The position numbers were made by a program, and so were the translations under genes. A stretch of 64,000 nucleotides of DNA, from positions 5,467-69,466 of the forward strand of contig CANRTI010000004.1 in assembly GCA_947642635.1 (NCBI GenBank), written 5' to 3'. The DNA comes from an uncultured Mycoplasma sp. (GTDB lineage: Bacteria > Bacillota_I > Bacilli_A > RF39 > UBA660). Shown here piece after piece: positions 9,951 to 48,979 of this stretch; position 1 is the first letter of the stretch, and every line of letters begins with the position of its first letter. A model generated the notes under the pieces. It did not search any database, was not told where the DNA came from, and saw nothing but the letters and a program-made list of their open reading frames with translations.

Positions 9951-10116
9951 TTTTAACTAAAAGAAAAAGGAACAGCGGAATCGTTCCTTTTTTAATTTAT
10001 AGTGTGAGTTTTAGGTTTGTTTTATTTTTTCAAATTATTATCTAATTTATCACTCCTCCTAACAATATTAATGATACTATTTATTTATGTAATTTTAGTG
10101 AAGAAATGAAGAAGAT

Positions 10117-14331: not shown

Positions 14332-14406
14332 GCAGGTGTAGTATAATGGTTAATATATAACCTTGCCAAGGTTGAGATGGGAGTTCGATTCTCCTCACTT
14401 GCTCCA
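14332..14406 (+). tRNA. tRNA-Gly (anticodon GCC)
   Basis: Acceptor stem gcaggtg/cacttgc with a G-U pair. Anticodon loop ttGCCaa. T-arm gggagTTCGATTctcc. CCA is encoded. Confidence 0.75.
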
Positions 14407-14495
14407 TTTGAAAACAACTTACGGACTGTAAAATGTTCGTGAGTTTTTATTTTATATAAAAGGCTTTAGTTCTCTTTCTAGGAAGGAGGACTTTT

Positions 14496-14783
14496 TTGAT
14501 GTTGGAATTTAAAATTATTGAAGAATTAAAACCAAATACTGAAATCTTGGAGATGATTAAAGACTGCACATACAAAGTTAAGAAAGGAGCAATAAAACAT
14601 ATTCTGCATACTAATTTACAAGTTATAGAGCCTACTGAATACTTAATTACATATCCTGCTACTCTTACACTTTTAGAATATAAAGTTAATGAAATATCTA
14701 ATAAGCCATTTTATATTAAAGAACATAATCAAAAATATAATCTCAAAGAAATTATCCAAATTTTAAAGAAAATTAAAATTTAG
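14496..14783 (+). CDS. hypothetical protein (mobile-element associated)
   Basis: ORF between the tRNA and the recombinase. Confidence 0.35.
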   Translation: MMLEFKIIEELKPNTEILEMIKDCTYKVKKGAIKHILHTNLQVIEPTEYLITYPATLTLLEYKVNEISNKPFYIKEHNQKYNLKEIIQILKKIKI

Positions 14784-14901
14784 ACTTCACTTTTTCCGTT
14801 TTAGTGAGGAAACATATGGGAGGACATTTTTACAAATTTTTAAGTTTATTGTTTGCTATTTTGTCTTTCAGTGAGGAAACAAGTGAGGAGATGATTATTT
14901 T

Positions 14902-16221
14902 ATGAGATGTGCAGTATATGTAAGAGTTAGTACAGACGACCAAAGAGATAATGGTTATTCTATTGATTCACAACTTCGTATGATTAAAGAATATTGTGAG
15001 AAAAACGATTATAGTATTGTTGATGTTTATAATGATGCAGGTCATTCTGGAAAAGATTTAATGCGACCAGAAATGCAAAGATTACTTGCAGATATTAAAT
15101 CTAAAAAGATTGATAAGTTAATTGCTATTAAAGTAGATAGACTTACAAGAAACAACTATGATGGATTTTGGCTTTTAAATTACTGTGAGGAACACGATGT
15201 TAAAATAGAACTTATTTTAGAGCCTTATGATGTATCTACTGCTAATGGTGAAATGATATTCGGTATGAATTTAGTATTTGGTCAAAGAGAAAGAAAAGAA
15301 ATTGGAGCAAGAACAAAAAGGGCAATGGAAGAAATGGCTTTAGAGCATATTCACCCTAGTAAAGCACCTTACGGGTATGTAAGAAATAAAGATACAGGAC
15401 ATTTAGAAATAGAGCCTATTGAAGCCCAAGTCGTTAAAGAAATATTTAAACTTTGCCAAGAGGGAAACTCTACTAGAAGCATTGCTACGATTATGGAAGA
15501 CGACAATGCTTATTTAAAAAATGGGAAGTGGAGAGCCGATAGAGTTTATAAAATACTAACTAATTCTATCTATATTGGTATATTTGAATACGGAAAATAT
15601 AAGAGAAAACAACAAGATATCTTAAGAGTAAAAGACTATTGTGAGCCAATTATAGATGAAACAACTTGGAATGCTACTAGAAATGTATCAGTGAAAAATA
15701 AACATTCAAACTATGGAGAGTTTATTCATTTATTTTCAGGATTAGTAAAATGTCCAATATGCGGTAGTATTATGGCTTCATCTGAATCTTTTAAATATCC
15801 AAATGGAAAACAAAAAGTTTATTACCATTTAAGATGTAAAAACCATAATTGTAGTGGATATGGACTTCATTACAATACCGAGAAAATAGAAGTTAAATTA
15901 AGAAGAGTATTAGAAGAATTAACTATCTTTATGATGGGAACAAATAATGAAATTATCACTTGTAATTCTACAAAAAGTAATGATGTAAAAGAAATAGAAA
16001 AAGCCATTGAAAAATTAAAGTTACAGGAAAAAAGACTAGTTGATTTATATTTAAGTTCGACCCTAGATGTTGAAACAATTAACCATAAAAATGATGTTAT
16101 AAAAAAAGAGATTGATAAACTAAACAAAAAGAAAACTACTCTTGATCCAAATAACGAATCAAAAGAATATACAACAGAACTACTAAAAAAATTAGACTGT
16201 AAAAAGGAAAATGACAAGTAA
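14902..16221 (+). CDS. large serine recombinase (resolvase/invertase N-domain + recombinase + zinc-ribbon + coiled coil), TnpX-like
   Basis: N-terminal AVYVRVSTDDQ with the catalytic Ser. C-terminal CPICG...C..H..C zinc ribbon and coiled coil. Placed adjacent to a tRNA gene. Confidence 0.85.
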   Translation: MRCAVYVRVSTDDQRDNGYSIDSQLRMIKEYCEKNDYSIVDVYNDAGHSGKDLMRPEMQRLLADIKSKKIDKLIAIKVDRLTRNNYDGFWLLNYCEEHDVKIELILEPYDVSTANGEMIFGMNLVFGQRERKEIGARTKRAMEEMALEHIHPSKAPYGYVRNKDTGHLEIEPIEAQVVKEIFKLCQEGNSTRSIATIMEDDNAYLKNGKWRADRVYKILTNSIYIGIFEYGKYKRKQQDILRVKDYCEPIIDETTWNATRNVSVKNKHSNYGEFIHLFSGLVKCPICGSIMASSESFKYPNGKQKVYYHLRCKNHNCSGYGLHYNTEKIEVKLRRVLEELTIFMMGTNNEIITCNSTKSNDVKEIEKAIEKLKLQEKRLVDLYLSSTLDVETINHKNDVIKKEIDKLNKKKTTLDPNNESKEYTTELLKKLDCKKENDK

Positions 16222-16393
16222 TGAATATTCGAGTGAATTTGTAGATGATTTTTTTGCTAAAGCCCATAGTCATTTTTATGTAGATGGTATAATTGGCAGT
16301 CCTTATTTTGAGGGAAATGTTTCTAAAGATTTTCTATTATTAGTACCCAAAAAAGAAGTAGTCAAAGCAACCTAAATGTGAAAGGAGTTAGCA

Positions 16394-16636
16394 ATGAAAC
16401 AATTAACAAAAGAAAATATTTTAAAGAATCAAGTAGATACCATAGAACAATTTAAAGTTCTTGATTATCTAAAAAAGCAATTATCTATTCTTGAATTTAA
16501 TTTATATTTAATAGATAGATTTACTATTAAAGTTGTAGATAAAAACAAAAAACAAGGTTATTTTAAATACAATTCTAAAACAAAATCAGTGGATTTTTGC
16601 GAGAGAAATATTAAAAACAAAGAAATGGAGAGATAA
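16394..16636 (+). CDS. hypothetical small protein
   Basis: ORF only. Confidence 0.3.
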   Translation: MKQLTKENILKNQVDTIEQFKVLDYLKKQLSILEFNLYLIDRFTIKVVDKNKKQGYFKYNSKTKSVDFCERNIKNKEMER

Positions 16637-16639
16637 AAA

Positions 16640-16993
16640 ATGGAATTAAATTATATAAAAGTTGGTGATTATTTATTACCAAACTTAACAATAGAAAAAC
16701 AAAATAATGAAAAGATTAACAAGTATGGCTATTTAAGATTACACTATCTGAAAGAAAATAATAAGCCACTTTATACAACTCTTTTAATGAAAAATGAACT
16801 AACAAATCATCTTGTTTCAGTTAGTATTGAAGCAGAAAATAGATTAAATATTTTAATGGAACAATGCAAAAATTCTGATAAATTACTATCTGAAAAAAAT
16901 AAAATGGATAACCAACTTCAATGGGTAAAACTAATGAATAATTATAAAAATATAGCAGAAGAAGTTATCTTAAAGGAACTAATTTATGTATGA
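16640..16993 (+). CDS. TnpV-like transposon protein
   Basis: YIKVGDYLLPNLT N-terminus and QWVKLMNN...AEEVILKELIY C-terminus. From memory this resembles TnpV of Tn4451-type serine-recombinase elements. Confidence 0.45.
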   Translation: MELNYIKVGDYLLPNLTIEKQNNEKINKYGYLRLHYLKENNKPLYTTLLMKNELTNHLVSVSIEAENRLNILMEQCKNSDKLLSEKNKMDNQLQWVKLMNNYKNIAEEVILKELIYV

Positions 16994-24005: not shown

Positions 24006-25388
24006 ATGAAAAAACTAGAAAAATATAATAGTAAACGAAACTTTAAGAAAACTAAAGAACCACAGGGAATAATAAAACCAAAGAAAAACAAAATGTTAAA
24101 ATATGTGATACAACATCATCTAGCTAGAAAAGATCATTATGATTTACGTTTAGAATATAATGGAGTTTTTATAAGTTTTGCTGTTCCAAAAGGTCCCTCA
24201 TTTAATCCTAAAGATAAAAGATTAGCGATTAAAGTTGAAGATCATCCAATAAGCTATGGTAATTTTGAAGGGGTAATTCCTACTGGGGAATATGGAGCTG
24301 GGATAGTAATGATTTTCGATAAAGGATACTGGAAACCACTAAAAGATACTGTTCCAGATTTTGATAATGGTCCAGTAAAATTTACGATTAAAGGAAAAAG
24401 ATTGCAAGGTAATTGGTCGTTAGTTAAATTAAAAGATTCTAATTGGTTATTAATTAAAGAAAAAGATGAATTTGCTAATAATAATGATATAAAAAAATAT
24501 CAAACTAGTATTAAAACTAATCGAACTATGGATGAGATTAAAAATAATGTTAAAAAATCTAGTTTTAGTGAGTTAACTAGTCCTGATAAAATAATTTTTC
24601 CTAAAGATAAAATTACTAAAAAAGAAATTTACGATTATTATCAATTAGTTAGTAAAAGAATGCTACCATTTTTGGATAATCGATTGATAAGTACAGTAAG
24701 GTGTCCTAATGGAATAGAAAAAGAAATATTTTTTATGAAACATTTAAATAATCCTAGTAAAAATTTAGGACAGAAAAAAATTCGAAATAAACAAGATGAA
24801 AAAACTAATTATTATTATATTAAAAATGATGTTGGCTTATTAGAAGAAGTACAAATGAATAGTTATGAATTTCATATTTGGGGGTCTTTACAAAATTATT
24901 ACAAAAAACCCGATATGATTGTTTTTGATTTAGATCCTGATGAAAGATTATCTTTAAAAAAAGTAAGAGATGGAGTTAGAGATTTAAAAAGTATCTTAGA
25001 TAATTTACATTTAATTTCTTATCTTAAAACTAGTGGTGGAAAAGGTTATCATATTTATGTTCCAATTAATTTACCTTCATTTAAAAGAGGTGAAAAAATT
25101 GCTGAAGATATTGCTAACTTAATGACTTTAAATTGGCCCGATAAATATACAACAAATATTCGTAAAGATAAAAGACAAAATAAAATATTTATTGATTATT
25201 ATCGAAATAAATTAGGAGCTACAAGTGTTTGTCCTTATTCTTTAAGATTAAAAGATAAAGCAACAGTATCTTGTCCTATTTTTTGGCATGAATTAGATAA
25301 AATTAAACCCCAAAGTATAACTATTAAAAATATAAAAGAACGTTTAAAGAAAAAAGATCCTTGGGCTGATTTTTTCAATCATTCGTAA
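24006..25388 (+). CDS. LigD 3'-phosphoesterase + polymerase/primase domains (no ligase domain)
   Basis: PE-domain HHLARKDHYDLRLE motif at the N-terminus. Pol domain motif GGKGYHIYVP at the C-terminus. Confidence 0.75.
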   Translation: MKKLEKYNSKRNFKKTKEPQGIIKPKKNKMLKYVIQHHLARKDHYDLRLEYNGVFISFAVPKGPSFNPKDKRLAIKVEDHPISYGNFEGVIPTGEYGAGIVMIFDKGYWKPLKDTVPDFDNGPVKFTIKGKRLQGNWSLVKLKDSNWLLIKEKDEFANNNDIKKYQTSIKTNRTMDEIKNNVKKSSFSELTSPDKIIFPKDKITKKEIYDYYQLVSKRMLPFLDNRLISTVRCPNGIEKEIFFMKHLNNPSKNLGQKKIRNKQDEKTNYYYIKNDVGLLEEVQMNSYEFHIWGSLQNYYKKPDMIVFDLDPDERLSLKKVRDGVRDLKSILDNLHLISYLKTSGGKGYHIYVPINLPSFKRGEKIAEDIANLMTLNWPDKYTTNIRKDKRQNKIFIDYYRNKLGATSVCPYSLRLKDKATVSCPIFWHELDKIKPQSITIKNIKERLKKKDPWADFFNHS

Positions 25389-27798: not shown

Positions 27799-28548
27799 TT
27801 AATCTCGATTTTGAGTTGAATTTGAAAGACAATTATCTTGCAGGCGCAAAGGTATTTGATAAGTTGTTAAAGTGTTATTAATAGTAAGTGCTTGGATTTC
27901 TAAAAACAATGAATTTTCTTTATATAATTTACAAGTTTGTGAATAATTATCCACATTAAATTGAACTTCTTTTAAAAAGTCATCTAAAGTTATGAGAGAT
28001 TTTTCAGAATAATTATATTCACTAATTTTTATTTTTTTATTATTTATTTGTTCATATAATACACAATCAATCTTTTGATATTGATTTTGATTTTTTTTAC
28101 CGCAATAACTAATATTTGAAATATAGATTGAAGATTTATTTTTATCATAAGCAATACTGCCCGAAAGATTAAAATTATCGCAACCAGCTGCTAAAGTTTT
28201 AAATTGAAAATTAGAAGATGATGTAATTATTAAAAATGTACAAAGTATTATTATAATTAATAAAATTATTAGAGTAATATATATCTTTGGTTTAGGTAAT
28301 CGAGATATTTTTGCATCTAAAAAATCATCTAAATTCATATTATAATCACGACAAATTTGTTTTAAAATTGCGATATCAGGAATATTTTTACCAGTTTCCC
28401 ATTTAGAAACAGCTTGATAAGTTACACCATATTTATTGGCAAATTTTTGTTGACTAATTCCTTCTTTTTGCCGAATACTTTTAATAAATTTTCCAATTTT
28501 TTCTGAATTCATATGCGCATTTTTGACCTTTCTATCTAAAATAATCAT
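27799..28548 (-). CDS. membrane-anchored XRE-family HTH regulator with extracellular C-terminal domain
   Basis: N-terminal HTH_3 (ISQQKFANKYGVTYQAVSKWETG), one TM segment and a Cys-containing C-terminal domain. Confidence 0.6.
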   Translation of the reverse strand: MIILDRKVKNAHMNSEKIGKFIKSIRQKEGISQQKFANKYGVTYQAVSKWETGKNIPDIAILKQICRDYNMNLDDFLDAKISRLPKPKIYITLIILLIIIILCTFLIITSSSNFQFKTLAAGCDNFNLSGSIAYDKNKSSIYISNISYCGKKNQNQYQKIDCVLYEQINNKKIKISEYNYSEKSLITLDDFLKEVQFNVDNYSQTCKLYKENSLFLEIQALTINNTLTTYQIPLRLQDNCLSNSTQNRD

Positions 28549-28648: not shown

Positions 28649-30022
28649 ATGAATAAAACTAATAATAAGAAATTTGTTATTACAATTTTGATAATTTTAA
28701 TTGCGGGAATAGTTTTTTACTTTTCTAATATTTATGGTAAAACTTATGATGATGTTATAAAAACAAAAATAACAAGTAATTTAAATGGAACGATACTTTA
28801 TAATAATGATAAAAATTTAATAATTAAAGATGAAAATAATGTTACATATGATTTTGAAACCGATAAAGTAAAAGAATATGCAGGAACTGAAATCAAAATT
28901 AACTGTGATGGCGATATTTTAAAAGATAATACTAAACAAGATTGTGAAATAAATGATTATGAAGTCATTGAAGAAAGTAAAATACCTAGTTCTTGGTTAG
29001 ATAATGGAATTTTTAGTAAATATTATGTAGATGCTTATGAAACATTAAAAAAAATGACAACTGAAGAAAAAATTGCCCAAACACTTTTAGTAAGATTTCC
29101 CGATACAAACGGAGTTAATTTACAACAACAATATCAATTTGGAGGTTATGTTTTTTTTGAAAGAGATTTTAAAAATAAAACAGTCGAAGAAATTCAAGTC
29201 ATGATTAATGAAGTTCAAAATGTTTCTAAAATACCTATTTTAACTGCGATTGACGAAGAAGGAGGAAAGGTAACAAGACTTAGTAGTAATCCTAATGTAG
29301 TAACTACGCCTTTTAAATCATCTCAAGAATTATATGCTAATGGTGGTTTTGAAGCTATTAAAGAAGATGTATTAAATAAAAGTAAAGTATTAAAAAATTT
29401 AGGATTAAATTTAAATTTAGCTCCCGTACTAGATATTTCAGTAAATCCAAATAACTATATTTATCCTAGAAGTTTTGGACAAAATGCAAATATGACTAGT
29501 GAATATGCAGAAACTGTTGTTAAATCTAGTAAAAATACAGGAGTATCTTATACTTTAAAACATTTCCCTGGATATGGAAGTAATTTAGATACCCATCAAG
29601 GAATATCTTTAGATAATAAAAGCTATGAGAGTATTTTAAATGAAGATATTCTTCCATTTAAAAGAGGAATAAATGTGGGAGCTGAAGCTGTAATGACAAG
29701 TCATAATATTCATGCAAGTATTGATCAATTTCCAGCTTCACTTTCTCCTAAAGTTCATGATATTTTAAGAAGTGATTTAAATTTTACTGGAGTAATTATT
29801 ACTGATGATCTTAGCATGAAAGCTTTAGATATATTTGAAAATAAAACTGCTCAAGCATTACTTGCAGGAAATGATTTAATTATTACATCGGATGCTGATA
29901 AAAGTTTTCAAGAAATTCAAAATGGATTAAATAATGGAATAATAAAAAGTGAAACTCTTGATAAAGTAGTTTTTCGTATTTTGGCTTTTAAATATACAAA
30001 AGGGTTATTAACATCTAATTAA
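28649..30022 (+). CDS. glycoside hydrolase family 3 beta-N-acetylhexosaminidase (NagZ/YbbD-like), membrane anchored
   Basis: GH3 N-terminal-domain motifs KHFPGYG and D-rich catalytic regions. N-terminal TM segment. Confidence 0.75.
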   Translation: MNKTNNKKFVITILIILIAGIVFYFSNIYGKTYDDVIKTKITSNLNGTILYNNDKNLIIKDENNVTYDFETDKVKEYAGTEIKINCDGDILKDNTKQDCEINDYEVIEESKIPSSWLDNGIFSKYYVDAYETLKKMTTEEKIAQTLLVRFPDTNGVNLQQQYQFGGYVFFERDFKNKTVEEIQVMINEVQNVSKIPILTAIDEEGGKVTRLSSNPNVVTTPFKSSQELYANGGFEAIKEDVLNKSKVLKNLGLNLNLAPVLDISVNPNNYIYPRSFGQNANMTSEYAETVVKSSKNTGVSYTLKHFPGYGSNLDTHQGISLDNKSYESILNEDILPFKRGINVGAEAVMTSHNIHASIDQFPASLSPKVHDILRSDLNFTGVIITDDLSMKALDIFENKTAQALLAGNDLIITSDADKSFQEIQNGLNNGIIKSETLDKVVFRILAFKYTKGLLTSN

Positions 30023-30330
30023 AATAACAGAGTAATAGATAAGTTACGTATAACTTAATCATCTCTGTTTTTAATTTAGACAAAATATTAAATCATTTTA
30101 TCTTAGATAATCTTTGTCTTCTATCTTCCCAAAATTATAGCCATAACCATAATATCTTTCAAGTTATAGAAGGCTGGGCGAACCGAATTCGTATTAGTCA
30201 AATTAGGATTGTTGACATTGCCGTTCGAATTCACATCCCACGCATTGTAATTGCCACCATTATAACCGTAACGCGTGTATTCTTTATCAAGACTACCTTA
30301 TATTTATTATAAAGTAATTTTAATTGAAGT
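30021..30330. repeat. ~300-bp cassette repeat copy A (terminator hairpin + 3' gene-fragment + conserved 3'UTR)
   Basis: ~90% DNA identity with 32181..32490 and 34245..34530. Confidence 0.8.
30121..30300 (-). pseudogene. 3'-terminal fragment of surface-protein paralog (no start codon)
   Basis: Translates to ...DKEYTRYGYNGGNYNAWDVNSNGNVNNPNLTNTNSVRPAFYNLKD*, homologous to the paralog C-terminus (SVRPVFYL). Frameshifted at the position of the copy-B ATG. Confidence 0.55.
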
Positions 30331-30346
30331 TAAATACTTTTGGTAT

Positions 30347-31864
30347 TTAGTTGACAATAATATATGGGTCAGTTTGTGTACCACTTCCAGAAATTTCAAT
30401 TGTTGGTACTAAATAGAAAACTGGACGAACCGAATGCTTATTACTTAAAGTACCCATGGTGTAAAGCATGACTCTGCCGTCCGAAGCCACACGCCACGCA
30501 TCATAAGCACTGTAGTATAATTCCTCGGATGAGATGTAACCATAACGCGACATGGTCCATTCATATGATGTGTTTAGTGCACTTATATCATTATTTGAAA
30601 AGTGCATCCAGCTTGTTTTACATGTACTATATTGTCCTGAATTACTACAGTTTGTTCCTGTTTTACTTAATCCATAATAATAATCTGTTACATACATTAA
30701 TCCTATTTTTGCACTTACTCTTGTACTCCACAATTGTTCTTGTTGCACCATTTGTGTCGCTGTTTTATTTGCATTTGTAAAATCTCCATATTTCCAGTCC
30801 ACCGTCTCTATTTTTTCTTCCCATCGGCTTGGTACGTATGTTGTGTTTCCTATAAATAAATCACTATATTTTCCTCCACTTATTCCATTTAACCCTTTAA
30901 ATAAATCACTTGCATTCCATTTGATATCTTGATTATATACATTATGCCAATAGAAAACTTTGTTGCTATTTTGTTCTATTGGTGTTTTCTTTATTAATTT
31001 AAATCTTCCTTTTTTATCTACTCCTATTATTCGATACATATATTTATCAATATCATCTATACAGATATCTTTATCATTTGTTCCAAAACAGATATAGTTT
31101 GGTGGGTTTGTTCCATAATATCTTGTTACCAATTCATCTTGTGCTACTCCAGTTGGTTCTAACACTCCACTTATTGGTTTATCCGCCAAACTATCACCAG
31201 TTATTGGGGGATTATACTCTATACAATCACTTTTTGCTTCAGATATGCCCTCAGCTATATCTTTGATATATGCATACAATATTTTATTACCTCTATTATT
31301 ACTTAATGTGAAATTGTTATTTATTTCGGTTACTCCATTAGTACTTTGCCACGTACAACTATCAATATCTTGTGTCTCACTTATACAGTATTCTTTAATA
31401 TATTGGTCACCCCATTTTAAATGAATTGTTACTTCTGGTACTTTAGTTGTTTTATTACTTGTTTCATCATTTATATAAAACTTATCAATTATTGGTGCAT
31501 CTTTCTTATCAAAATAAAGATAACAATATAGTTTTTGATTTAATCTTAAACTTACTTTACCACTTTCATAGTTAATTGCGTTTACCACTTCTTTTCCTGT
31601 GGTATCAATACATCCGGATTTTTCGCTATTATATATGTATCCTACTTTGGGAAATGTAGTACTTGTACTTTCTTTATAACTACCATCGCCTTCATTTAAC
31701 ATAATAGCTACTGTTTTCTTTTCCTTTTTGTTTTCTTCTTTAAATTTAACATCATCTATTATTGTTACTTTATGCGATAATGATTTCCATGTTAAAAAGA
31801 TTGAACATACTTCCATTATTGTTAATATCATTATTAATACTATTTTCGTTCTTTTCATCTTCAA
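30347..31864 (-). CDS. membrane-anchored surface protein, paralog 2
   Basis: N-terminal ~230 aa are ~90% identical to paralog 3. Shares the conserved C-terminal family domain. Confidence 0.65.
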   Translation of the reverse strand: MKMKRTKIVLIMILTIMEVCSIFLTWKSLSHKVTIIDDVKFKEENKKEKKTVAIMLNEGDGSYKESTSTTFPKVGYIYNSEKSGCIDTTGKEVVNAINYESGKVSLRLNQKLYCYLYFDKKDAPIIDKFYINDETSNKTTKVPEVTIHLKWGDQYIKEYCISETQDIDSCTWQSTNGVTEINNNFTLSNNRGNKILYAYIKDIAEGISEAKSDCIEYNPPITGDSLADKPISGVLEPTGVAQDELVTRYYGTNPPNYICFGTNDKDICIDDIDKYMYRIIGVDKKGRFKLIKKTPIEQNSNKVFYWHNVYNQDIKWNASDLFKGLNGISGGKYSDLFIGNTTYVPSRWEEKIETVDWKYGDFTNANKTATQMVQQEQLWSTRVSAKIGLMYVTDYYYGLSKTGTNCSNSGQYSTCKTSWMHFSNNDISALNTSYEWTMSRYGYISSEELYYSAYDAWRVASDGRVMLYTMGTLSNKHSVRPVFYLVPTIEISGSGTQTDPYIIVN

Positions 31865-31959
31865 ATACCTCTTATTATTTTTATATTAACCCAAAATAGG
31901 TTAAAAGTCAATAACCCATTTTAGGTTATGTTATTATGCGATTAGGGAATAATAAAATT

Positions 31960-32187
31960 ATGAATAGATTAAAAGAAATTAGAGAAGATAACGATTTAAA
32001 TCAATCTCAAGTGGCTAAAATTTTAGATATGAGCCAAACTGGTTATTCAAAATATGAATGCGAAACAAATGATATTCCTACAGAAATATTAAAAAAACTA
32101 GCTGATTATTATAATACTAGTATTGATTATTTATTATATGAAACTGATGTCCGCAATCGTTATCCCAAAAGTTTATTAAAAAAATAA
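31960..32187 (+). CDS. XRE-family HTH transcriptional regulator (divergent from paralog 2)
   Basis: HTH_3 motif QSQVAKILDMSQTGYSKYE. Likely start is MNRLKEIR; the ORF track starts 8 codons upstream. Confidence 0.7.
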   Translation: MNRLKEIREDNDLNQSQVAKILDMSQTGYSKYECETNDIPTEILKKLADYYNTSIDYLLYETDVRNRYPKSLLKK

Positions 32188-32490
32188 CAGAGTAAATAGG
32201 CAATCTCGTAAGATTAACCATCTCTGTTTTTAATTTAGATAAAATATTAAAATCATTTCATCCTAGATAATCTTTGTCTTCTATCTTCCCAAAATTATAG
32301 CCATAACCATAATATCTTTCAAGTTATAGAAGGCTGGGCGAACCGAATTCGTATTATTCAAATTCCAATTGTTGACATTGCCGTTCGAATTCACATCCCA
32401 CGCATTGTAACCGCTGCCATTATAACCGTAACGCGTGTATTCTTTATCAAGACTACCTATATTCATTATAAAGTAATTTTATTTGAAGTT
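32181..32490. repeat. cassette repeat copy B
   Basis: DNA identity with copies A and C. Confidence 0.8.
32281..32466 (-). pseudogene. 61-aa ORF = 3' fragment of surface-protein paralog (intact ATG only in this copy)
   Basis: Translates to MNIGSLDKEYTRYGYNGSGYNAWDVNSNGNVNNWNLNNTNSVRPAFYNLKD.., homologous to the family C-terminus. Confidence 0.5.
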
Positions 32491-32505
32491 AAATATTTTT
32501 ACTAT

Positions 32506-33927
32506 TTAGTTGACAATAATGTAAGGATCAGTAATGGTACCATTACCTGATACTTCTATATTAGATTTTAAATAAAAGACAGGTCTAACATTATAAGGAA
32601 GATCAACCCAATTAGAACTAATAAAACCTGTGATATGAATAGCCCTAGCTACTCCCGTAGATGATGCAGTCATTGTCCATTCAGTCCAATCTGTTAATGT
32701 ACTATCATTGTTTTTCAAAAATAACCAATTATCAATACAATATGAGTTACCATAAATACCACAATCCGCTCCCTCTTTTTGATAAGCATATGTTAAATCA
32801 GTCATATATAATATACCTATTTTCGCACTAATTGTGGATGTAAATCCCTGTTCAGTTTTAAGAGCTGTAATTGCTCTAACATCTGTACCATTATAACTTC
32901 CATATTTCCAATTTACTGTCTCTATTTTGTCACTCCATTTAGAAGAAATATTTGATAGAAATGCACTTCCGTTTACTAGCGTGTATAATGCACTTTGTGA
33001 CCATTGAATAGTATCTTTTGTTGAATTATGCCATTGATATGCTGTATTCAACGCCTCTTTTTTTATTAACTTAAATCTATTACTTTTATCTACTCCAATT
33101 ATTCGGTACATATATTTATCGGTATCATTTACACATGTATCTTTAACAATTGTTCCAAAACAAATATAATTTGCTGGATTTGTTCCATAATATCTCATCT
33201 TTAGTTCATCCTGAGATACTCCTGTTGATTCTAATACTCCATCTATCGGCTTATTTGCTAAATCACCACCTGTTATTGGTACTTTATACTCTATACTATC
33301 ACTTTTGACTTCCGATACTCCTTCAGCTATATCCTTGATATATGCATATATTGTTTTCTTTCCTTCACTTGTAAAAGTATATTTTGAAGTGATTTCTGTT
33401 CCTCCATTAGTACTTTGCCATGAACAACTATCAATATCTTGTGTCTCACTTATACAGTATTCTTTAATATATTGGTCACTCCATTTTAGATGAATTGTTA
33501 CTTCTGGTTCTTTAGTTACTTTATTACTTGTTTCATCATTGATATAAAACTTATCAATGATTGGTTTCTCTTTCTTATCAAAATATAGATAACAATATAA
33601 CTTTTGATTCAATCTTAAACTTACTTTTCCACTTTCATAGCTAATTGCATTTACCACTTCTTTTCCTGTGGTATCAATACATCCAGATTTCTGGGTATTA
33701 TATATGTATCCTACTTTGGGAAAAGTTGTACTCTCACTTTCTTTATAACTACCATTTCCATCATTTAACATAATAGCTACTGCTTTCTTTTCCTTTTTAT
33801 TTTCCTCTTTAAACTTAACATTATCTATTATTGTTATTTTATGCGATAATGATTTCCATGTTAAAAAGATTGAACATACTTCCATTATTGCTAATATCAT
33901 TATTAATATTATTTTTGTTCTTTTCAT
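32506..33927 (-). CDS. membrane-anchored surface protein, paralog 3
   Basis: As for paralog 2. Confidence 0.65.
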   Translation of the reverse strand: MKRTKIILIMILAIMEVCSIFLTWKSLSHKITIIDNVKFKEENKKEKKAVAIMLNDGNGSYKESESTTFPKVGYIYNTQKSGCIDTTGKEVVNAISYESGKVSLRLNQKLYCYLYFDKKEKPIIDKFYINDETSNKVTKEPEVTIHLKWSDQYIKEYCISETQDIDSCSWQSTNGGTEITSKYTFTSEGKKTIYAYIKDIAEGVSEVKSDSIEYKVPITGGDLANKPIDGVLESTGVSQDELKMRYYGTNPANYICFGTIVKDTCVNDTDKYMYRIIGVDKSNRFKLIKKEALNTAYQWHNSTKDTIQWSQSALYTLVNGSAFLSNISSKWSDKIETVNWKYGSYNGTDVRAITALKTEQGFTSTISAKIGILYMTDLTYAYQKEGADCGIYGNSYCIDNWLFLKNNDSTLTDWTEWTMTASSTGVARAIHITGFISSNWVDLPYNVRPVFYLKSNIEVSGNGTITDPYIIVN

Positions 33928-34025
33928 ATATTATCCTCTTTATCTTAATATAATAATATCTCAAAATGCGATACTAGTCAATATAACAATTTGAGATATG
34001 ATATGTTTTTTGAGGTGAAAACAAA

Positions 34026-34253
34026 ATGAATAGATTAAAAGAAATTAGAGAAGATAAAGATTTATTGCAATCTGATATTGCCAAAATACTTGGAATGAGC
34101 CAAAATGGTTATTCTTTATATGAAAATGGTGAACGAAAAATTCCAGTTGATAAATTGCGAATTTTGGCAGACTTTTATAATACTAGTATTGATTATTTAT
34201 TATACGAAACTGATGTCCGTAATCGTTATCCCAAAAGTTTATTAAAAAAATAA
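34026..34253 (+). CDS. XRE-family HTH transcriptional regulator (divergent from paralog 3)
   Basis: HTH_3 motif. C-terminal 25 aa are identical to the other XRE copy, but the recognition helix differs. Confidence 0.7.
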   Translation: MNRLKEIREDKDLLQSDIAKILGMSQNGYSLYENGERKIPVDKLRILADFYNTSIDYLLYETDVRNRYPKSLLKK

Positions 34254-34530
34254 CGGAGTTGCTAGGTTATCTCGTAAGATTAGCCATCTCCGTTTTTAAT
34301 TTGGATAAAATATTAAATCATTTAATCCTAGATAGTCTTTGTCTCCTATCTTCCCAAAAATATAGCCATAACCATATTATCTTTCAAGTTATAAGAGGCT
34401 GGGCGAACCGAATTCGTATTATTCAAATTGGTATTGCCGACATTGCCGTTCGAATTCACATTCCACGCATTGTAATTGCCGTTGCTATTCCGACCGTAAC
34501 GCGACTATTTTCTTTAGCAAGACTACCCTA
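34245..34530. repeat. cassette repeat copy C (more diverged, frameshifted fragment)
   Basis: DNA identity with copies A and B. The hairpin shows compensatory changes. Confidence 0.75.
34346..34530 (-). pseudogene. frameshifted 3' fragment of surface-protein paralog
   Basis: Homologous to the copy-B ORF but with a 5-nt indel. Confidence 0.45.
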
Positions 34531-34588
34531 TTTTTATTATAACATAAGTTTAAAAGAAAAAATGTTGAAAACATTTAAATTTTCAACA

Positions 34589-35269
34589 TTAACGATCATT
34601 ATTGAATATTGCAATCAATCTTATAATTTCTAAAATAGATGTCAATACTGATGCAACATAAGTCATTGCTGCAGAAGATAACATTTTAGTTACACCCACA
34701 ATTTCCTCAGTATCAACTAATTTTAATTTTTCTAATTCTAATTTTGCTCTTTTACTGGCATTAAATTCAACTGGTAAAGTAATTAATTGAAAAATTAACC
34801 CGATACAAATTAAACCTATTCCAAAAGCAAAAACTCGAAAGTATTCAGTTAGTAAACCAATAAAGATTACAATCCAAGAAAATTTAGAAACCAAACCAAC
34901 AAATGGCGCAATAAAACTTCTAATACGCATAAATGAATATTTTTCTTTATCTTGAATGGCATGGCCACATTCATGAGCTGCAACAGCAGCAGCAGCTACT
35001 GTTTCTCCATTAAAAATATCTTTAGATAATTTTAAAACTTTTCTCGTTGGATCATAATGGTCAGTTAAATTACCAGGTGTTTCAACAACATAAATGTCTT
35101 CTAATCCATTAGCATCTAAAATTTTTCTTGCAACTTCAAATCCTGACATTCCTTTTTTATTATCGACTTTCTTATATTTACTATAAGATAAACTTATTTT
35201 AATTTGTGCAATTATTGGAATAGCAATAATTAGTATATACAATATTATATTTAAACTATCATATCTCAT
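34589..35269 (-). CDS. zinc metallopeptidase, YugP family
   Basis: HECGHAIQD zinc-binding motif plus TM segments. Confidence 0.7.
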   Translation of the reverse strand: MRYDSLNIILYILIIAIPIIAQIKISLSYSKYKKVDNKKGMSGFEVARKILDANGLEDIYVVETPGNLTDHYDPTRKVLKLSKDIFNGETVAAAAVAAHECGHAIQDKEKYSFMRIRSFIAPFVGLVSKFSWIVIFIGLLTEYFRVFAFGIGLICIGLIFQLITLPVEFNASKRAKLELEKLKLVDTEEIVGVTKMLSSAAMTYVASVLTSILEIIRLIAIFNNDR

Positions 35270-43434: not shown

Positions 43435-44325
43435 TTAATTAACTATTTTAGAAATATTACTAACGGCATTTATGGCATCACTAGCAGCTGTCACTAATTG
43501 ATAAATATCTTTTTTTACTGCATCCCCAATTGCATATATACCTTTAATATCAGTTTCAAATTTTGAGTTTATTTTAATATATCCTTGTTCATCAACAATA
43601 TCTAATTCATTAAATATTTCAGTATTTGGCCGATAACCAATATAGATGAAAACACCTGCAACATTTAATTTTGTGTTATTGTCTAAAATAATACTTTCTA
43701 TTTTACCAGCATTTTCATTATACTCAGCAATATTTACATTACATATAATCTCTATTTTAGGATTATTCTTAACTTTATCTAATAATATTGGCTCACCCTT
43801 AAATGTATCTTTACGATTTAGAAGATAAATCTTTTCACAAATTTTGGCTAAATATAATGATTCTTGTAATGCACTACTTCCACTTCCAACTACTGCTATG
43901 GGTTTATCTTTATAAAAGGCCCCATCACATGTAGCGCAAGTACTAATTCCTCGACCTAACAAATCTTTTTCATTGTCTAGTCCTAAATACTTTGGTTTAC
44001 TACCTGTTGCAATAATTATATTCTTCGTAATATATTCACCTTTATTAGTAAGAACTTTCTTCGTTTCTTTTTCTACTTCCAATTTAGTAACTTCTTCAAA
44101 TTTATAAGGGATTTCCAAATCTTTTACTTGCTCAAATAATTTATTAGAAAAATCAGCACCTTTTACATTCATTAATCCTGGATAATTACTTATTTGCTCT
44201 ATGTTATTTAACATTCCTCCAGGCATTCCTTTATCAATTAATAAAACATTTAAATTTCCTCTTTTGGCATAAATTCCTGCCGTAATACCACCAATTCCCA
44301 TACCAATTATAATTAAATCATACAT
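43435..44325 (-). CDS. trxB: thioredoxin-disulfide reductase-like FAD/NAD(P) oxidoreductase
   Basis: GxGxxG FAD motif and CATC redox-active disulfide. Confidence 0.75.
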   Translation of the reverse strand: MYDLIIIGMGIGGITAGIYAKRGNLNVLLIDKGMPGGMLNNIEQISNYPGLMNVKGADFSNKLFEQVKDLEIPYKFEEVTKLEVEKETKKVLTNKGEYITKNIIIATGSKPKYLGLDNEKDLLGRGISTCATCDGAFYKDKPIAVVGSGSSALQESLYLAKICEKIYLLNRKDTFKGEPILLDKVKNNPKIEIICNVNIAEYNENAGKIESIILDNNTKLNVAGVFIYIGYRPNTEIFNELDIVDEQGYIKINSKFETDIKGIYAIGDAVKKDIYQLVTAASDAINAVSNISKIVN

Positions 44326-44357
44326 ATAAATCCTCCTTTATTATTATACTCCCAATT

Positions 44358-45158
44358 TTATTCTTCATTATATAAATCTTCAAAACGACTCTTCCGGCAC
44401 AAAATAATAAATATTATTAAACCACCAATAAATGAAAATATCGAAAATAATTGTGCGGCTTTAAAGCCACCAAGCATCAATGAGTCTGTTCGTAGTGCTT
44501 CAATAAAGAAACGCCCAACAGAGTAATACATTAAATAAATGCAAGTAAGTTGGCCTCTTTTTAAATAACGATACCTTCTTATAAAAAGTAAAATAATAAA
44601 ACCAATTAAACAATAAATACTTTCATAAAAAAATGTTGGATGATAATAATTATTACCAATTTTCATCCCCTCAATTATTTTTTCAGGAATATGTAATTCT
44701 TTTAAATGAAAATAAGTAGTTGCTGGTCCATGAGCTTCCCCATTAAAGAAATTTCCCCATCTGCCAATAGATTGCGCTAGTAAAAGTGGAACGACAATCA
44801 TATCGGTAATTTTGGCAGCTTTATAATTAGATTTTTTAGTATATAATATAATAGTAATTAAACCACCAATAATACCACCATGTATTGCTAAACCGCCTTC
44901 CCAGATTTTAAAAATATCAAGAATATTATTTTTATACATTGAAAAATTAAATAGACAATAATAAATCCGAGCAGAAATAATTCCTACAACTACTACCCAG
45001 AAAGCTAAATTAAATGTAAATTCTTTGGAAATATTAAAACGTTTACCTTCTTTAATAAATAAAATCATCGCAAAAATTATTCCAATTAGAAGCATTACAG
45101 AATACCATCTAACTTCAAAACCAAACAAATTAAATAAAATTGGATTCATTTTGGTCAC
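44358..45158 (-). CDS. lgt: prolipoprotein diacylglyceryl transferase
   Basis: Lgt signature sequence and seven TM segments. Confidence 0.85.
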   Translation of the reverse strand: MTKMNPILFNLFGFEVRWYSVMLLIGIIFAMILFIKEGKRFNISKEFTFNLAFWVVVVGIISARIYYCLFNFSMYKNNILDIFKIWEGGLAIHGGIIGGLITIILYTKKSNYKAAKITDMIVVPLLLAQSIGRWGNFFNGEAHGPATTYFHLKELHIPEKIIEGMKIGNNYYHPTFFYESIYCLIGFIILLFIRRYRYLKRGQLTCIYLMYYSVGRFFIEALRTDSLMLGGFKAAQLFSIFSFIGGLIIFIILCRKSRFEDLYNEE

Positions 45159-45250
45159 TCCTATCTTAAATTACTAATAACTTAATAGTATTTATGTAAT
45201 TATTTTACTATATTTATTTTAAAAAATATAGTATTTAAAAAAGAGAAACA

Positions 45251-48067
45251 TTATTTTTCTCTTTCAAAAATTCTTTTTAAGAAAATTCCAGTATACGATT
45301 CTTTTACTTTACTAACTTCTTCAGGAGTGCCAGTAGCTACAATACTGCCACCATATTTTCCACCTTCGGGACCTAAATCAATGACATAATCTGCTTGTTT
45401 TATGACATCTAAATTATGCTCAATAACAATTACTGTATCACCATTATCAACTATCCGATTTAAAACTTCTAAAAGTTTTTTAATATCAGCTGAATGTAAT
45501 CCCGTTGTGGGCTCATCTAAGATAAAAATAGATTTTCCTGTTGCCTTTTTTTGTAATTCTTTTGCAAGTTTAACCCGACCTGCTTCGCCACCACTTAGTG
45601 TAGGTGCTCCTTGTCCTAGTTTAACATAATCAATTCCTACATCTTGCATAACTTGCAATTTATCATGAACTTTAGGAACGTTTTCAAAAAATGGTAATGC
45701 TTCACTAACACGCATATTTAAAATATCGGCAATACTCTTCTCTTTAAATTTAACATCTAAGGTTTCTCTATTATATCTTTTTCCACCACAGACATCGCAA
45801 GGAACATATACATCAGGAAGAAAATGCATTTCAATTTTTTTAACTCCATCGCCATAGCAAGCTTCACACCGGCCACCTTTAACATTAAATGAAAAACGCC
45901 CTTTATCATAACCTCTAATTTTAGATTCTTTCATATTAGCAAATACATCGCGAATATCATCAAATACCCCAACATATGTTGCAGGATTACTTCTTGGAGT
46001 TCTACCTATTGCATCTTGACTAATATTAACAACTTTATCAACATGCTCAATTCCTTTAATACTCTTACATTTTCCTGGAATATCTTTTGATTTGTAAAAC
46101 TCTCGATGTAATGATTTATATAATATTTCATTAACAAGAGTTGATTTTCCAGAACCCGATACACCTGTTACAACAACAAATTTATTTAATGGAAATTTAA
46201 CATTAATATTTTTTAAATTGTTTTCTGAAGCTCCTTTTACTTCTAAAAACAAACCATTTCCTTTGCGATGTTTTTTAGGTATTTCAATTCTTTCTTTTAA
46301 AGATAAGAAGCGACCTGTAATACTTTTATCATCTTGCATAACTTCTTTAGGAGTACCATGAGATACAATATAACCCCCAGCATCTCCTGCCCCGGGTCCA
46401 ACATCTACTAAATAATCAGCCGCTAACATTGTATCTGTATCATGCTCGACAACAATTAATGTGTTTCCTAAATCACGCATTTCTTTTAAAGAATTGATTA
46501 ATTTTTCATTATCTCTTTGATGTAATCCAATAGATGGTTCATCAAGAACATATAATACTCCTGATAATCGACTACCAATTTGAGTTGCTAATCTAATTCT
46601 TTGGGCTTCTCCACCGCTTAATGTAGCCGCACTTCTTGCCAGTGTTAAATAATTCAAACTAACATTTTTTAAGAAATTTAATCTTGATAAAATCTCTTTT
46701 AATAATAATTTACTTATTTCTTGTTCTTCATTATTAAGTTTTAAATTATTAATAAAATCAAATAGCTCATCGATAGCCATCAAAGTCATATCATAAATAC
46801 TCTTTTTATTAATTTTAACTGCTTCTATTTCACTTTTTAATCTCGTACCATGACATTTATTACAAGTAGACTCTACCATAAAACCGGAAATCCACTCTCT
46901 AATCCAAGAACTATTTGTTTCCATATAACGACGTTCTAAATTATTAATAATACCTTCATAAGTAGATTTGGTATCTCTAGTACTTCCATTTTTAGCAACA
47001 TAGTGAAAGTCCATAATATCATTAGTACCATACAAAATAATATCTAAATCTTTTTTACTCATTTCTTTTATAGGAATATCTAAATTTATATTATAATGAT
47101 CTGCTACAGTTTTCAAACTACTTAAATACATATTATTATCTAAATTAATAGCTACAATAGCGCCATTATTAATACTTTTATTTTTATCTGGTATTAATAA
47201 ATCTTCACTAATTTTTAATTTAGTTCCTAATCCTTTGCAATCTTCACAAGCTCCATATGGCGAATTAAAAGAAAACATACGTGGCTCTAATTCAGTAATT
47301 GAAAAATTACAATAAGGACAAGCATAATTTTCACTCATCAATATATCTTCTGTATCATTAACTCGGATAATTACTAAGCCATTTGCCATTTTAGTACTAG
47401 CTTCAATTGCTTCAAATATTCGGCTTCGCTCATCAAGACTAACAGGTAATTTATCAACTAAAACTAAAATATCATCTTTTTTATTTTTTTCTAAAACAAT
47501 GTCTTCACTACCATTATACATCACACCATTAACTTTGATTTTAGTAAATCCTTTACTTCTTAAATCTTCTATTAATTCTTTGTGAGTTCCTTTTTCGCCC
47601 CGCACTATTGGACTATAAACTTCAATTTTAGTTCCACTTTCTAAATTTAAAACTTTATTAGTCATCTCTTCAATACTTTGACTTTTAATAGGAATTTTAT
47701 GGGTAGGACAATAAGGAATACCTATTCGCGCAAATAATAGCCGTAAGTAATCATATAATTCGGTAATTGTTCCCACAGTAGAACGAGGATTCTTATTAGT
47801 AGTTTTTTGATCAATTGATATACTAGGTGATAATCCTTCAATCGAATCTACATCTGGTTTCTCACTATTTCCAATAAATTGCCGTGCATAAGCTGATAAA
47901 CTTTCAACATATCTTCTTTCCCCTTCAGCATAGATTGTATCAAAAGCTAGGCTACTTTTACCACTACCTGAAACTCCTGTCATGACTATTAATTTATTTT
48001 TGGGTAATTCTAAGTCAATATTTTTTAAGTTATTTTCTCTTGCACCACGTATAACAATTTTATCCAT
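45251..48067 (-). CDS. uvrA: excinuclease ABC subunit A
   Basis: Tandem ABC ATPase domains with zinc fingers. Likely start is MDKIVIRG; the ORF track adds 19 codons upstream. Confidence 0.9.
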   Translation of the reverse strand: MDKIVIRGARENNLKNIDLELPKNKLIVMTGVSGSGKSSLAFDTIYAEGERRYVESLSAYARQFIGNSEKPDVDSIEGLSPSISIDQKTTNKNPRSTVGTITELYDYLRLLFARIGIPYCPTHKIPIKSQSIEEMTNKVLNLESGTKIEVYSPIVRGEKGTHKELIEDLRSKGFTKIKVNGVMYNGSEDIVLEKNKKDDILVLVDKLPVSLDERSRIFEAIEASTKMANGLVIIRVNDTEDILMSENYACPYCNFSITELEPRMFSFNSPYGACEDCKGLGTKLKISEDLLIPDKNKSINNGAIVAINLDNNMYLSSLKTVADHYNINLDIPIKEMSKKDLDIILYGTNDIMDFHYVAKNGSTRDTKSTYEGIINNLERRYMETNSSWIREWISGFMVESTCNKCHGTRLKSEIEAVKINKKSIYDMTLMAIDELFDFINNLKLNNEEQEISKLLLKEILSRLNFLKNVSLNYLTLARSAATLSGGEAQRIRLATQIGSRLSGVLYVLDEPSIGLHQRDNEKLINSLKEMRDLGNTLIVVEHDTDTMLAADYLVDVGPGAGDAGGYIVSHGTPKEVMQDDKSITGRFLSLKERIEIPKKHRKGNGLFLEVKGASENNLKNINVKFPLNKFVVVTGVSGSGKSTLVNEILYKSLHREFYKSKDIPGKCKSIKGIEHVDKVVNISQDAIGRTPRSNPATYVGVFDDIRDVFANMKESKIRGYDKGRFSFNVKGGRCEACYGDGVKKIEMHFLPDVYVPCDVCGGKRYNRETLDVKFKEKSIADILNMRVSEALPFFENVPKVHDKLQVMQDVGIDYVKLGQGAPTLSGGEAGRVKLAKELQKKATGKSIFILDEPTTGLHSADIKKLLEVLNRIVDNGDTVIVIEHNLDVIKQADYVIDLGPEGGKYGGSIVATGTPEEVSKVKESYTGIFLKRIFEREK

Positions 48068-48271
48068 TATTCCACCAACATTTCTAAATATATAATATAA
48101 AATCAAGCAATCATAATATACCAAACAATTGTATGTAAGTCAAGTTTAATTATAAAAAAAGGCATTAATTAAAACGCCTTTTTCCGTAGAGTCAACCTCT
48201 ACTTTATTATTATAACCTTTTTCAAGATTATTATACTTTATTTTTAGAAAATTTGTTATAATGATTAAAAG

Positions 48272-48979
48272 GTGATAATAGTGAAAAAATTAATGTTAAT
48301 AATAATTGTTCTTTTAATAATTGGACTTACTAGTTTTAGTATTTATTACATGAATGAGAATTTAGAAAAAAAACCAACTAATAACACAAACAAAAATCAA
48401 GAGCCAGTTTTAGAAGATGAAGATGAATTTATTGATAATAATCCTATTGTTCTTGGTTTATATAAATATTATGGTAAAGCTAAAAATCGGGAATTAATTC
48501 AAGAATATGTTGCTCCTTGGGAATATCATAAAGATATTTCTTCTTTCGAAGTATTTTATACGAATGATTTAGAAATTAATAATAAATGGTTACCAACAAC
48601 ATTTGATGAATATAAAAATAATTATGAAGATGTTGATAATTATCGAATTGGATATATTATTGAGTTTTCTACTATAAATGAAAATATAAAGAAAACTATT
48701 TTAACACCTAAAGATACTGAAGATTTCTTTAAATATTTAGAAGTTTATTTATATGATGATTATCATCGTCAAAATGGTGTTTGGTATAGTCATACAACTG
48801 AAAACGAATTTAAGGAAGAAACATTATTAACATCAATAAAACTAACTGCTGGAACAAATATTGCAGAAATAAATTCGGATATTAAAGTGTTTGTTTTTAC
48901 ATATGATAATGATGACTTTGATCAAAATAATAATTATAGAGGAAAAAGTATATATAATATTGTAGTTAAAAGAAGTTAA
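48272..48979 (+). CDS. hypothetical membrane-anchored protein
   Basis: ORF with an N-terminal TM segment. Confidence 0.4.
   Translation: MIIVKKLMLIIIVLLIIGLTSFSIYYMNENLEKKPTNNTNKNQEPVLEDEDEFIDNNPIVLGLYKYYGKAKNRELIQEYVAPWEYHKDISSFEVFYTNDLEINNKWLPTTFDEYKNNYEDVDNYRIGYIIEFSTINENIKKTILTPKDTEDFFKYLEVYLYDDYHRQNGVWYSHTTENEFKEETLLTSIKLTAGTNIAEINSDIKVFVFTYDNDDFDQNNNYRGKSIYNIVVKRS

Follow-up and report, generated by a model that had tools for sequence, protein, structure and literature searches.

Candidate template-repeat units of a diversity-generating retroelement among DUF6273 surface-protein genes of an uncultured low-GC Bacilli genome

Results

Layout of the array

The 64,000-nucleotide stretch analyzed here (the window; assembly GCA_947642635.1, contig CANRTI010000004.1, positions 5,467 to 69,466) comes from an uncultured Mycoplasma sp., is AT-rich (26% GC over the whole 64 kb), and encodes proteins whose homologs lie in gut-type metagenome-assembled genomes labelled uncultured Bacilli or Firmicutes. 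It contains an array in which genes for predicted membrane-anchored paralogs and for XRE-family helix-turn-helix (HTH) proteins alternate with a short minus-strand module, which we interpret below as a template repeat (TR) unit of a diversity-generating retroelement (DGR). The ~320-nt module is present three times, at 30021-30342 (unit 1), 32181-32502 (unit 2), and 34247-34572 (unit 3), and a 25-mer from it has three exact matches in the window against zero expected. Unit 1 is followed by paralog 1 (30347-31864, minus strand; 505 aa when read from a TTG start, 503 aa in the databases, P0004/P0250) and by XRE1 on the plus strand (31936-32187; 83 aa; HTH_3, 48 bits), which is also called as a gene in locus L001. 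The same order recurs with unit 2, paralog 2 (32506-33927, minus strand; 473 aa, P0001), and XRE2 (34026-34253, plus strand; 75 aa; HTH_3, 54.5 bits). Unit 3 is solo, standing between XRE2 and the 3' end of a Zn-peptidase gene (34589-35269, minus strand) that forms the right border of the array; the left border is a GH3 glycosidase gene (28649-30022, plus strand). A third paralog (3417-4610, minus strand; 397 aa), which lacks the middle domain, lies 26 kb away from the array.

A previous sequence-only reading of this DNA had described a unit of minus-strand fragment, full minus-strand paralog, and plus-strand XRE gene that recurs three times. The composition is confirmed, as both full-length paralogs in the array have a divergent XRE gene, and the fragment module does occur three times; the complete units, in contrast, number two, plus the one solo fragment. 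Divergent pairs of XRE and paralog genes are also found at loci L003, L004, L005, and L008, and this conserved pairing suggests that the XRE proteins probably control the adjacent paralogs, which makes the earlier idea of a dedicated regulator for each copy plausible. The intergenic region between paralog 2 and XRE2 carries an imperfect 21-nt inverted repeat (33953-34002; 81% complementary, 8-nt spacer), which is a candidate XRE operator.

Conservation of the modules

When units 1 and 2 are compared, conservation is highest in the fragment module (91.4% identity), either copy of which is 82-84% identical to unit 3. The neighbouring segments are far more diverged: the proportion of synonymous differences (pS) is 0.32 in the 5' part of the paralogs, 0.41 in the XRE genes, and 0.71 in the 3' part of the paralogs, and the paralog-XRE intergenic regions are 63% identical. 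The fragments had initially been taken for pseudogene remnants, but a module divergence of 8.6% next to synonymous sites with pS of 0.32-0.41 excludes neutral decay. They had also been described as C-terminal pieces of the paralogs; to the 3' ends of the adjacent genes, however, they are only distantly related, with 34% aa identity over 53 residues and one 40-nt DNA match at 80%. The open reading frame (ORF) of fragment 2 is identical in six samples besides the window (L015-L020), and fragment 2 is identical in eight samples overall.

Anatomy of the units

Each unit consists, in this order, of a TATAAT box, a leader, a TR of ~100 nt, a conserved spacer of ~125 nt, and a bidirectional terminator hairpin. 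In unit 1, the -35 and -10 elements read TTAACT-16-TATAAT, the leader is AGGTAGTCTTGATAAAG, and the hairpin lies at about 30027-30069; unit 3 has the extended -10 element TGTTATAAT. The TR cores (TR1, 30172-30273, running from CGT TAC GGT to CGC CCA GCC; TR2, 32332-32433; TR3, 34397-34501) stand out from the AT-rich window with a GC content of 44-47% (44% in TR1). Their minus-strand reading, ...RYGYN..NYNAW(D/N)VNSNGNV..N.NL.NTNSVRPAFYNLK, corresponds to the last loop region of a DUF6273 domain (see below). Within the 23-codon core, 8-9 codons specify Asn (AAT or AAC, hence AAY), as is evident in TR1, and the non-Asn codons are GC-ending (GCG TGG, GTG, TCG, GGC, GTC, ACG, TCG GTT CGC CCA GCC). 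The structural codons of the TR are thus fixed and GC-rich, and the loop codons are AAY; such AAY-rich tracts are a known signature of DGR template repeats. An intact ORF is present only in fragment 2 (61 aa), since fragment 1 has no start codon in the TR frame and fragment 3 contains in-frame stops, and the 61-aa ORF is a by-product of the TR reading frame. The fragments are therefore what a TR is expected to be, namely non-coding, AAY-rich, strain-invariant copies of a target 3' end, with the exception of two A/G single-nucleotide polymorphisms (SNPs) in TR1 between the window and L001.

A terminator had also been noted in the repeated unit, and every module indeed has a hairpin, with U-runs on both sides, that folds on either strand (-9 to -14 kcal/mol; z-scores of -1.9 to -3.9). 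Because of this symmetry, the hairpins can also terminate the plus-strand XRE and GH3 genes. Our promoter and terminator scanner did not flag them, owing to its loop-size rule, and an E-value-based Rfam search of 29900-34700 gave no match. The promoter assignment is based solely on the conservation of the TATAAT box across ten module copies (see below). All three units keep another strong promoter-like site just past the TR, again on the minus strand (30134-30162, 32294-32322, and 34359-34387 in units 1, 2, and 3). This site reads TTGAAA-17-TATAAT, with 10-11 of 12 matches; it may drive a short spacer-only RNA or may be coincidental.

Paralog proteins and the DUF6273 domain

Paralogs 1 and 2 share 62% aa identity overall. 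In line with the previous description of similar 5' halves and divergent 3' halves, the N-terminal ~285 residues (aa 1-285) are 85.8% identical at the nucleotide level, compared with 58% for the C-terminal parts. The conserved C-terminal domain, for which no family could be named at first, was identified by a profile search: paralog 2 matches Pfam DUF6273 (PF19789) with 27.0 bits, above the gathering score of 23.5. Paralogs 1 and 3 fall below sequence detection for this family; their identity to paralog 2 or to one another is 47-62%. DUF6273 has been described as a C-type-lectin-like DGR target domain with the variable region (VR) at its C-terminal end (PMC10743442; PMC11792537; bioRxiv 10.1101/2024.10.15.618418).

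A full-length AlphaFold2 model built with 66 homologs (predicted local distance difference test, pLDDT, of 88.7) begins with a transmembrane (TM) helix (residues 2-28), which is followed by a disordered linker, a pair of beta-sandwich domains, and, at the C-terminus, a globular domain. As a Foldseek search of this model against the PDB returned generic Ig/FN3 matches only, the C-terminal domain was modelled by itself (paralog-1 residues 232-505; AlphaFold2 pLDDT 93.7). In this model it has a C-type-lectin-like fold, with the VR-equivalent segment in the C-terminal loops just before SVRPVFYL. Each paralog is accordingly predicted to start with a TM helix, to continue with one or two Ig/FN3-like domains, and to end in a DUF6273/C-type-lectin domain; in this family, the VR occupies the final loops ahead of the ...SVRPVFYL motif.

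Traces of VRs in the local paralogs

Paralog 1, with its TM helix, two Ig/FN3-like domains, and DUF6273 domain, contains a decayed VR-like stretch at about 30413-30505. By inspection, its segment GAT GCG TGG CGT GTG GCT TCG GAC GGC AGA GTC agrees with the TR in 22 of 23 non-A positions, and 7 of 10 A positions are changed. In an adenine-tolerant scan, the best non-self identity at non-A positions is 0.65-0.67 for paralog 3 and ~0.6, with indels needed, for paralog 1, against a background of ~0.45. The mismatches of both paralogs are biased toward adenines (p about 4e-4 against TR3 and 0.001-0.03 against TR1 and TR2). Both also keep GC-ending codons (GCG TGG / GTG / TCG / GGC / GTC), and many of their other mismatches are AT-ward changes, mostly synonymous (CGC to CGT or AGA, TCG to TCA, ACG to ACA), which is the pattern expected after retro-templating ends. 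The VR-equivalent of paralog 3 has the length of TR3 and combines A-biased mismatches with AT-ward decay; in the C-terminal loop region of paralog 2, the resemblance to the TR is gone. Since only such decayed, A-biased traces remain, the local paralogs look like former targets that are now frozen.

Module copies and retroelement genes in relatives

Copies of the module in relatives were traced by a protein search with the fragment-2 ORF, which led through five small called ORFs to their contigs and yielded seven further copies from five other metagenome assemblies. In the alignment of these with the three window copies, the TATAAT box is conserved, the leader reads AGGTAGTCTTGATAAAGAA, and an invariant TR scaffold is broken by three or four variable blocks. 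The ~125-nt spacer is nearly invariant, and the terminator hairpin occurs in two alternative versions with compensatory changes. RNAalifold on the ten copies pairs the leader with the spacer.

Two of the relatives' contigs place the module in a DGR context. The 3.9-kb scaffold L014 belongs to a close relative and encodes a paralog-2-like protein whose gene is 87% identical to that of the window; two module copies lie downstream of this gene and upstream of genes for a MutS-like protein, Avd, and a reverse transcriptase (RT). The L014 Avd matches NF033474 (NCBIfam "diversity-generating retroelement protein Avd") with an E-value of 6.5e-10, and the RT carries the motif IGNMTSQ, which we take to be the (I/L/V)GxxxSQ motif typical of DGR RTs; an RT with IGNMTSQ also lies close to the target gene in L007. 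Contig L022 starts within the 3' end of a target gene and runs through a terminator and a module copy, and then on into DNA that corresponds to the stretch upstream of the MutS-like gene in L014. Its VR differs from its own TR at 9 of 13 A sites and at 2 of 29 non-A sites (Fisher p 7e-5).

An A-masked TR/VR pattern scan of 185,579 GTDB genomes found two loci, which lead to the L006/L007 homolog P0022; scans of viral contigs and of JGI metagenomes with this pattern found none. The VR of P0022 (L007) agrees with the window TRs in 90-93% of the non-A sites and is mismatched in about half of the A sites (mismatches at 5-8 of 71-73 and at 14-16 of 29-31 sites, respectively; p 1e-4 to 1e-6), and its gene lies 5 kb from Avd, RT, and MutS-like genes. 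The Avd and MutS-like proteins of L007, L008-L013, and L014 match bAvd and NF033474 (E-values of 6e-8 to 6.5e-10) and MutS_I, respectively. In L008-L013, the L007-type Avd-RT-MutS-like cassette (RT at 10001-11128 in each) has a conserved chromosomal context of uvrA, lgt, trxB-like, spoU, and sigma factor genes on one side and ecfA, ecfA', ecfT, and truA on the other. In the corresponding region of the window (43435-48124), the uvrA-lgt-trxB-like genes are followed by a methyltransferase and a U32 peptidase gene, with no cassette.

TRs and VRs further differ at their ends. Every one of the ten TR copies ends in ...CCAGCC, with GCC (Ala) after CGC CCA (30172-30174, 32332-32334, and 34397-34399 in the window), whereas the two bona fide VRs end in ...CC(A/G)GTC (Val; GTC at L007 11138-11140 and L022 34-36). 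This contrast may represent the IMH*/IMH (initiation of mutagenic homing) distinction that gives homing its direction, for which it is a candidate. The VR end, as it would stand on a VR reporter, reads ...CGCCCAGTC.

In relatives, a ~330-nt element lies between TR copies (L014 1190-1510; L021 1-290 and 610-816; L024 357-680). A promoter-like TTGTCA-17-TACAAT is present in this element, together with a 44-aa hydrophobic ORF (MIKIDWRWLLMRKKDILIIFLFTIIFFLLYILKEIIKIAPSITG) enclosed by a long inverted repeat (GCTAGGTGCTTACC...GGTAAGCACTTAGC); the element might belong to the DGR RNA or form a type-I-toxin-like module.

Variation between samples

Loci L001 and L002 represent the same strain (99.97-100% identity). 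Four SNPs separate the window from L001 over 13.4 kb, and two of these fall in the TR1 core (30258 and 30267). We considered the latter as a sign of active mutagenesis and dropped the idea, as the observation is post hoc and anecdotal and concerns G/A transitions at scaffold positions.

The array is nevertheless not invariant. In sample ERZ14425196, locus L025 shows no difference from the window over 7.5 kb apart from an exact 256-nt deletion within the segment bounded by a shared ACGGCA (30219-30480). The junction, which lies in this ACGGCA, joins the VR of paralog 1 and TR1 in homologous register and fuses paralog 1 to fragment 1 (fusion protein P0249); we regard the deletion as real because a k-mer assembler would not collapse so short a stretch of exact shared sequence. 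In addition, the cluster variants P0251, P0255, and P0248 are mosaics with middle-domain segments identical to those of other paralogs, and the rate of synonymous substitution (dS) is very uneven along the unit, rising from 0.42 in the 5' part to more than 2 in the 3' part. Together, the mosaics and the uneven dS suggest recombination among the paralogs, chimeric metagenome assembly being another possible source of the mosaics.

Discussion

Interpretation of the fragments as template repeats

We interpret the fragments as stand-alone TR RNA genes of a DGR and the paralogs as membrane-anchored surface proteins of the DGR-target type, a reading to which we assign a probability of about 0.78; its core, that the fragments are template repeats, is in our judgement likely correct. 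The case for reverse-transcriptase templating is built on the Asn-rich codons, the adenine-specific mismatches in relatives, and the position of the module beside the MutS-like, Avd, and RT genes in L014. By analogy with established DGR biology, from which the mechanism is inferred, a TR unit would be transcribed, and the RT, together with Avd and the MutS-like accessory protein, would copy the TR into complementary DNA (cDNA) while misreading adenines. The cDNA would then overwrite the cognate VR and randomize the ligand-binding loops, and several non-identical TRs would impose different patterns of fixed and variable positions. The array itself probably grew by tandem duplication of a [TR + paralog + XRE] segment, with later homogenization or exchange of the 5' gene halves. 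Thus, the earlier proposal of a locus that diversifies surface proteins from donor cassettes holds with respect to diversifiable membrane-anchored proteins and donor templates, and fails with respect to homologous gene conversion as the mechanism.

Several observations weigh against this interpretation. Pfam and tblastn searches found no RT, Avd, or MutS-like gene in the 64-kb window: RVT_1 has no match among the 28 window ORFs scanned with Pfam, and tblastn with the L007 RT finds no homolog in the entire window. An adenine-tolerant scan likewise found no cognate VR in the window. Of the features of a complete DGR, an RT near the TR, a TR/VR pair differing almost only at adenines, and an accessory gene are therefore all missing from the window, whereas such TR/VR pairs do occur in the relatives L022 and L007. 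The unit promoters are consensus matches in AT-rich DNA, in which promoter-like matches show no overall enrichment, and transcription of the units as RNAs is a prediction from the TATAAT box, the terminator hairpin, and the predicted leader-spacer pairing. The A-biased mismatches to an Asn-rich sequence could partly reflect ordinary protein-level loop variability. Moreover, the VR of P0022 is identical in both samples that carry it, and ongoing diversification is observed nowhere. Finally, neither a repeat search nor an adenine-tolerant scan found a TR near the RT cassettes of L007 and L008, where the contigs stop 43-67 nt past the target genes.

The contig ends at these loci deserve a comment of their own. 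The target-gene contigs of L007 and L008 break off 43-67 nt after the stop codon (L007 11213-11255; L008 19372-19438). In L009-L012, the contigs reach no further than the start of the homologous gene or stop just short of it, and L022 opens inside a VR. VR/TR repeats thus seem to be systematic break points of the assemblies, and the TRs of these genomes are hidden as a result.

Active templates, relics, and other explanations

If the fragments are TRs, they may still be in use or not, and we place current activity in this genome at roughly even odds. One specific form of activity, in which the units are independently transcribed template RNA genes scattered among the paralogs and served in trans by an RT more than 29 kb away, is a tentative proposal that we hold with less than even confidence. 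The main alternative to use in trans is an orphaned relic: the units would be former DGR templates whose RT has been lost, kept intact through recent loss or mutual homogenization, and no diversification would take place now. We consider this possible, though on the doubtful side. It would account for a window with neither an RT nor a cognate VR within 64 kb and for adjacent paralogs with decayed VRs; the close relative L014 has its RT cassette directly beside the TR array, where the window has other genes, and DGR target loci without a DGR have already been published. On the other hand, every GC-rich scaffold codon has been kept in all three copies within a 26% GC genome, next to neighbours that diverged by 32-41% at synonymous sites, which points to long-term, continued selection and leads us to favour slightly an RT elsewhere in the genome that still uses the TRs. 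TR and RT can work in trans, and MutS-like accessory genes, remote targets or components, and TRs not co-transcribed with the RT are all documented for DGRs.

Other explanations do not invoke a retroelement template. In silent-cassette gene conversion, as in Neisseria pilE/pilS or Borrelia vlsE, the fragments would be remnants of paralog 3' ends that donate sequence by homologous recombination. The window indeed resembles these systems in having partial, promoterless-looking copies beside surface-protein genes and one fragment-gene recombinant, P0249 of L025; the paralog mosaics P0251, P0255, and P0248 and the heterogeneous dS could be read in the same way. The L025 exchange, however, is a deletion at a 6-nt microhomology with no conversion, and the mosaics, which could be assembly chimeras, concern the N-terminal and middle domains rather than the fragment. 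Long, high-identity donor tracts and mutually different donors, as expected of silent cassettes, were not found in the array: no conversion tracts were seen, the identity between fragments and gene 3' ends is too low for homologous exchange, and the fragments, near-identical to one another (82-91%) and unlike the genes, would add no diversity. Their conservation beyond neutrality, their promoter and terminator elements, a template chemistry that points to reverse transcription, and the adjoining RT genes in relatives also argue against gene conversion, which we regard as highly improbable. We give even less credence to the fragments being VRs of truncated target genes or small protein-coding genes. 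Gene callers do report the 61-aa ORF of fragment 2 in several samples, and two of the four window-L001 SNPs, both A/G, fall in the core of fragment 1. Small protein genes were rejected because the ORF is intact in only one of three copies and broken in fragments 1 and 3. VRs, in turn, would not be expected to retain AAY at 11-13 of ~17 variable-position codons in each copy after adenine mutagenesis, to be identical in eight samples as fragment 2 is, or to end uniformly in GCC where bona fide VRs have GTC.

Relation to known systems

Read as TRs of a DGR, the fragments bring the locus close to DGRs with MutS-like (MSL) genes, that is, Architecture D, exemplified by the Legionella DGR (Wu et al, 2017; PMC5758913). 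As in these DGRs, the target has a C-type-lectin fold and a C-terminal VR; further parallels come from relatives, in which the TR is a homolog of the window fragments and mismatches between TR and VR are adenine-specific, and from L007 and L014, which have Avd, MutS-like, and RT genes. The window differs in having no RT, Avd, MSL gene, or matching VR over 64 kb and in its three TR copies, each apparently a transcription unit of its own and none adjoining an RT. DGRs acting on DUF6273 proteins are known from gut phages, where they have been described for tentaclins and Mtd-like targets (PMC10743442), for Faecalibacterium prophages (PMC11792537), and for Toutatisvirus (bioRxiv 10.1101/2024.10.15.618418). 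The common ground comprises a DUF6273 C-type-lectin target with a C-terminal VR and attached Ig-like domains, and target genes that can persist where the DGR is absent. In contrast to phage tail or capsid proteins, the window proteins are chromosomal, TM-anchored cellular proteins of low-GC uncultured Bacilli in housekeeping neighbourhoods, and they are paired with XRE regulators. More than one TR for a family of tandem lectin-fold target genes is likewise known, for example from Stenotrophomonas sp. SKA14 with two TRs and six VRs (PMC6642488); in the window, however, the TRs are interleaved with pairs of paralog and regulator genes and detached from the RT, and in relatives the copies are split by the small hairpin/ORF element.

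DGRs, DUF6273 targets, MutS-like accessory genes, remote targets, and multi-TR cassettes are thus already published. What is new is the host group, the chromosomal TM-anchored targets with XRE regulators, and the self-contained, repeated TR units away from an RT and interleaved with ex-target paralogs. On our reading, an unnamed array of a "variable surface protein" and pseudogenes becomes recognizable DGR machinery in poorly known gut Bacilli, and DGR templates can exist as repeated, self-contained units apart from any RT. If the TRs are active, RT-centred DGR surveys undercount templates and targets, and the non-identical templates could steer which loop positions of a lectin-fold receptor are randomized; if the distributed, multi-template arrangement is real, DGR finders that demand a TR beside the RT would miss it. 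If the units are relics, they provide a clear case of DGR targets that freeze and decay, in which the GC-rich VR scaffold erodes AT-ward and VR and TR recombine into deletions.

Other features of the window

Outside the array, a tRNA-Gly(GCC) gene is followed by a large serine recombinase gene (14902-16221, plus strand) and two small ORFs (14332-16993). The source contig of L001 starts at about window position 16715, and the tRNA-Gly region may represent an integrated element or a site that varies between strains. A gene for a 249-aa protein (27799-28548) lies divergent from the GH3 gene; with an XRE HTH at its N-terminus, a TM segment, and a C-terminal part that looks extracellular, the protein is possibly a membrane-bound regulator. 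Two large ORFs (49752-52439, 895 aa; 48272-48979, 235 aa) have no Pfam match at E <= 1e-5. A LigD-like protein with 3'-phosphoesterase and primase-polymerase domains (24006-25388) suggests a non-homologous end joining (NHEJ) repair module in this small low-GC genome.

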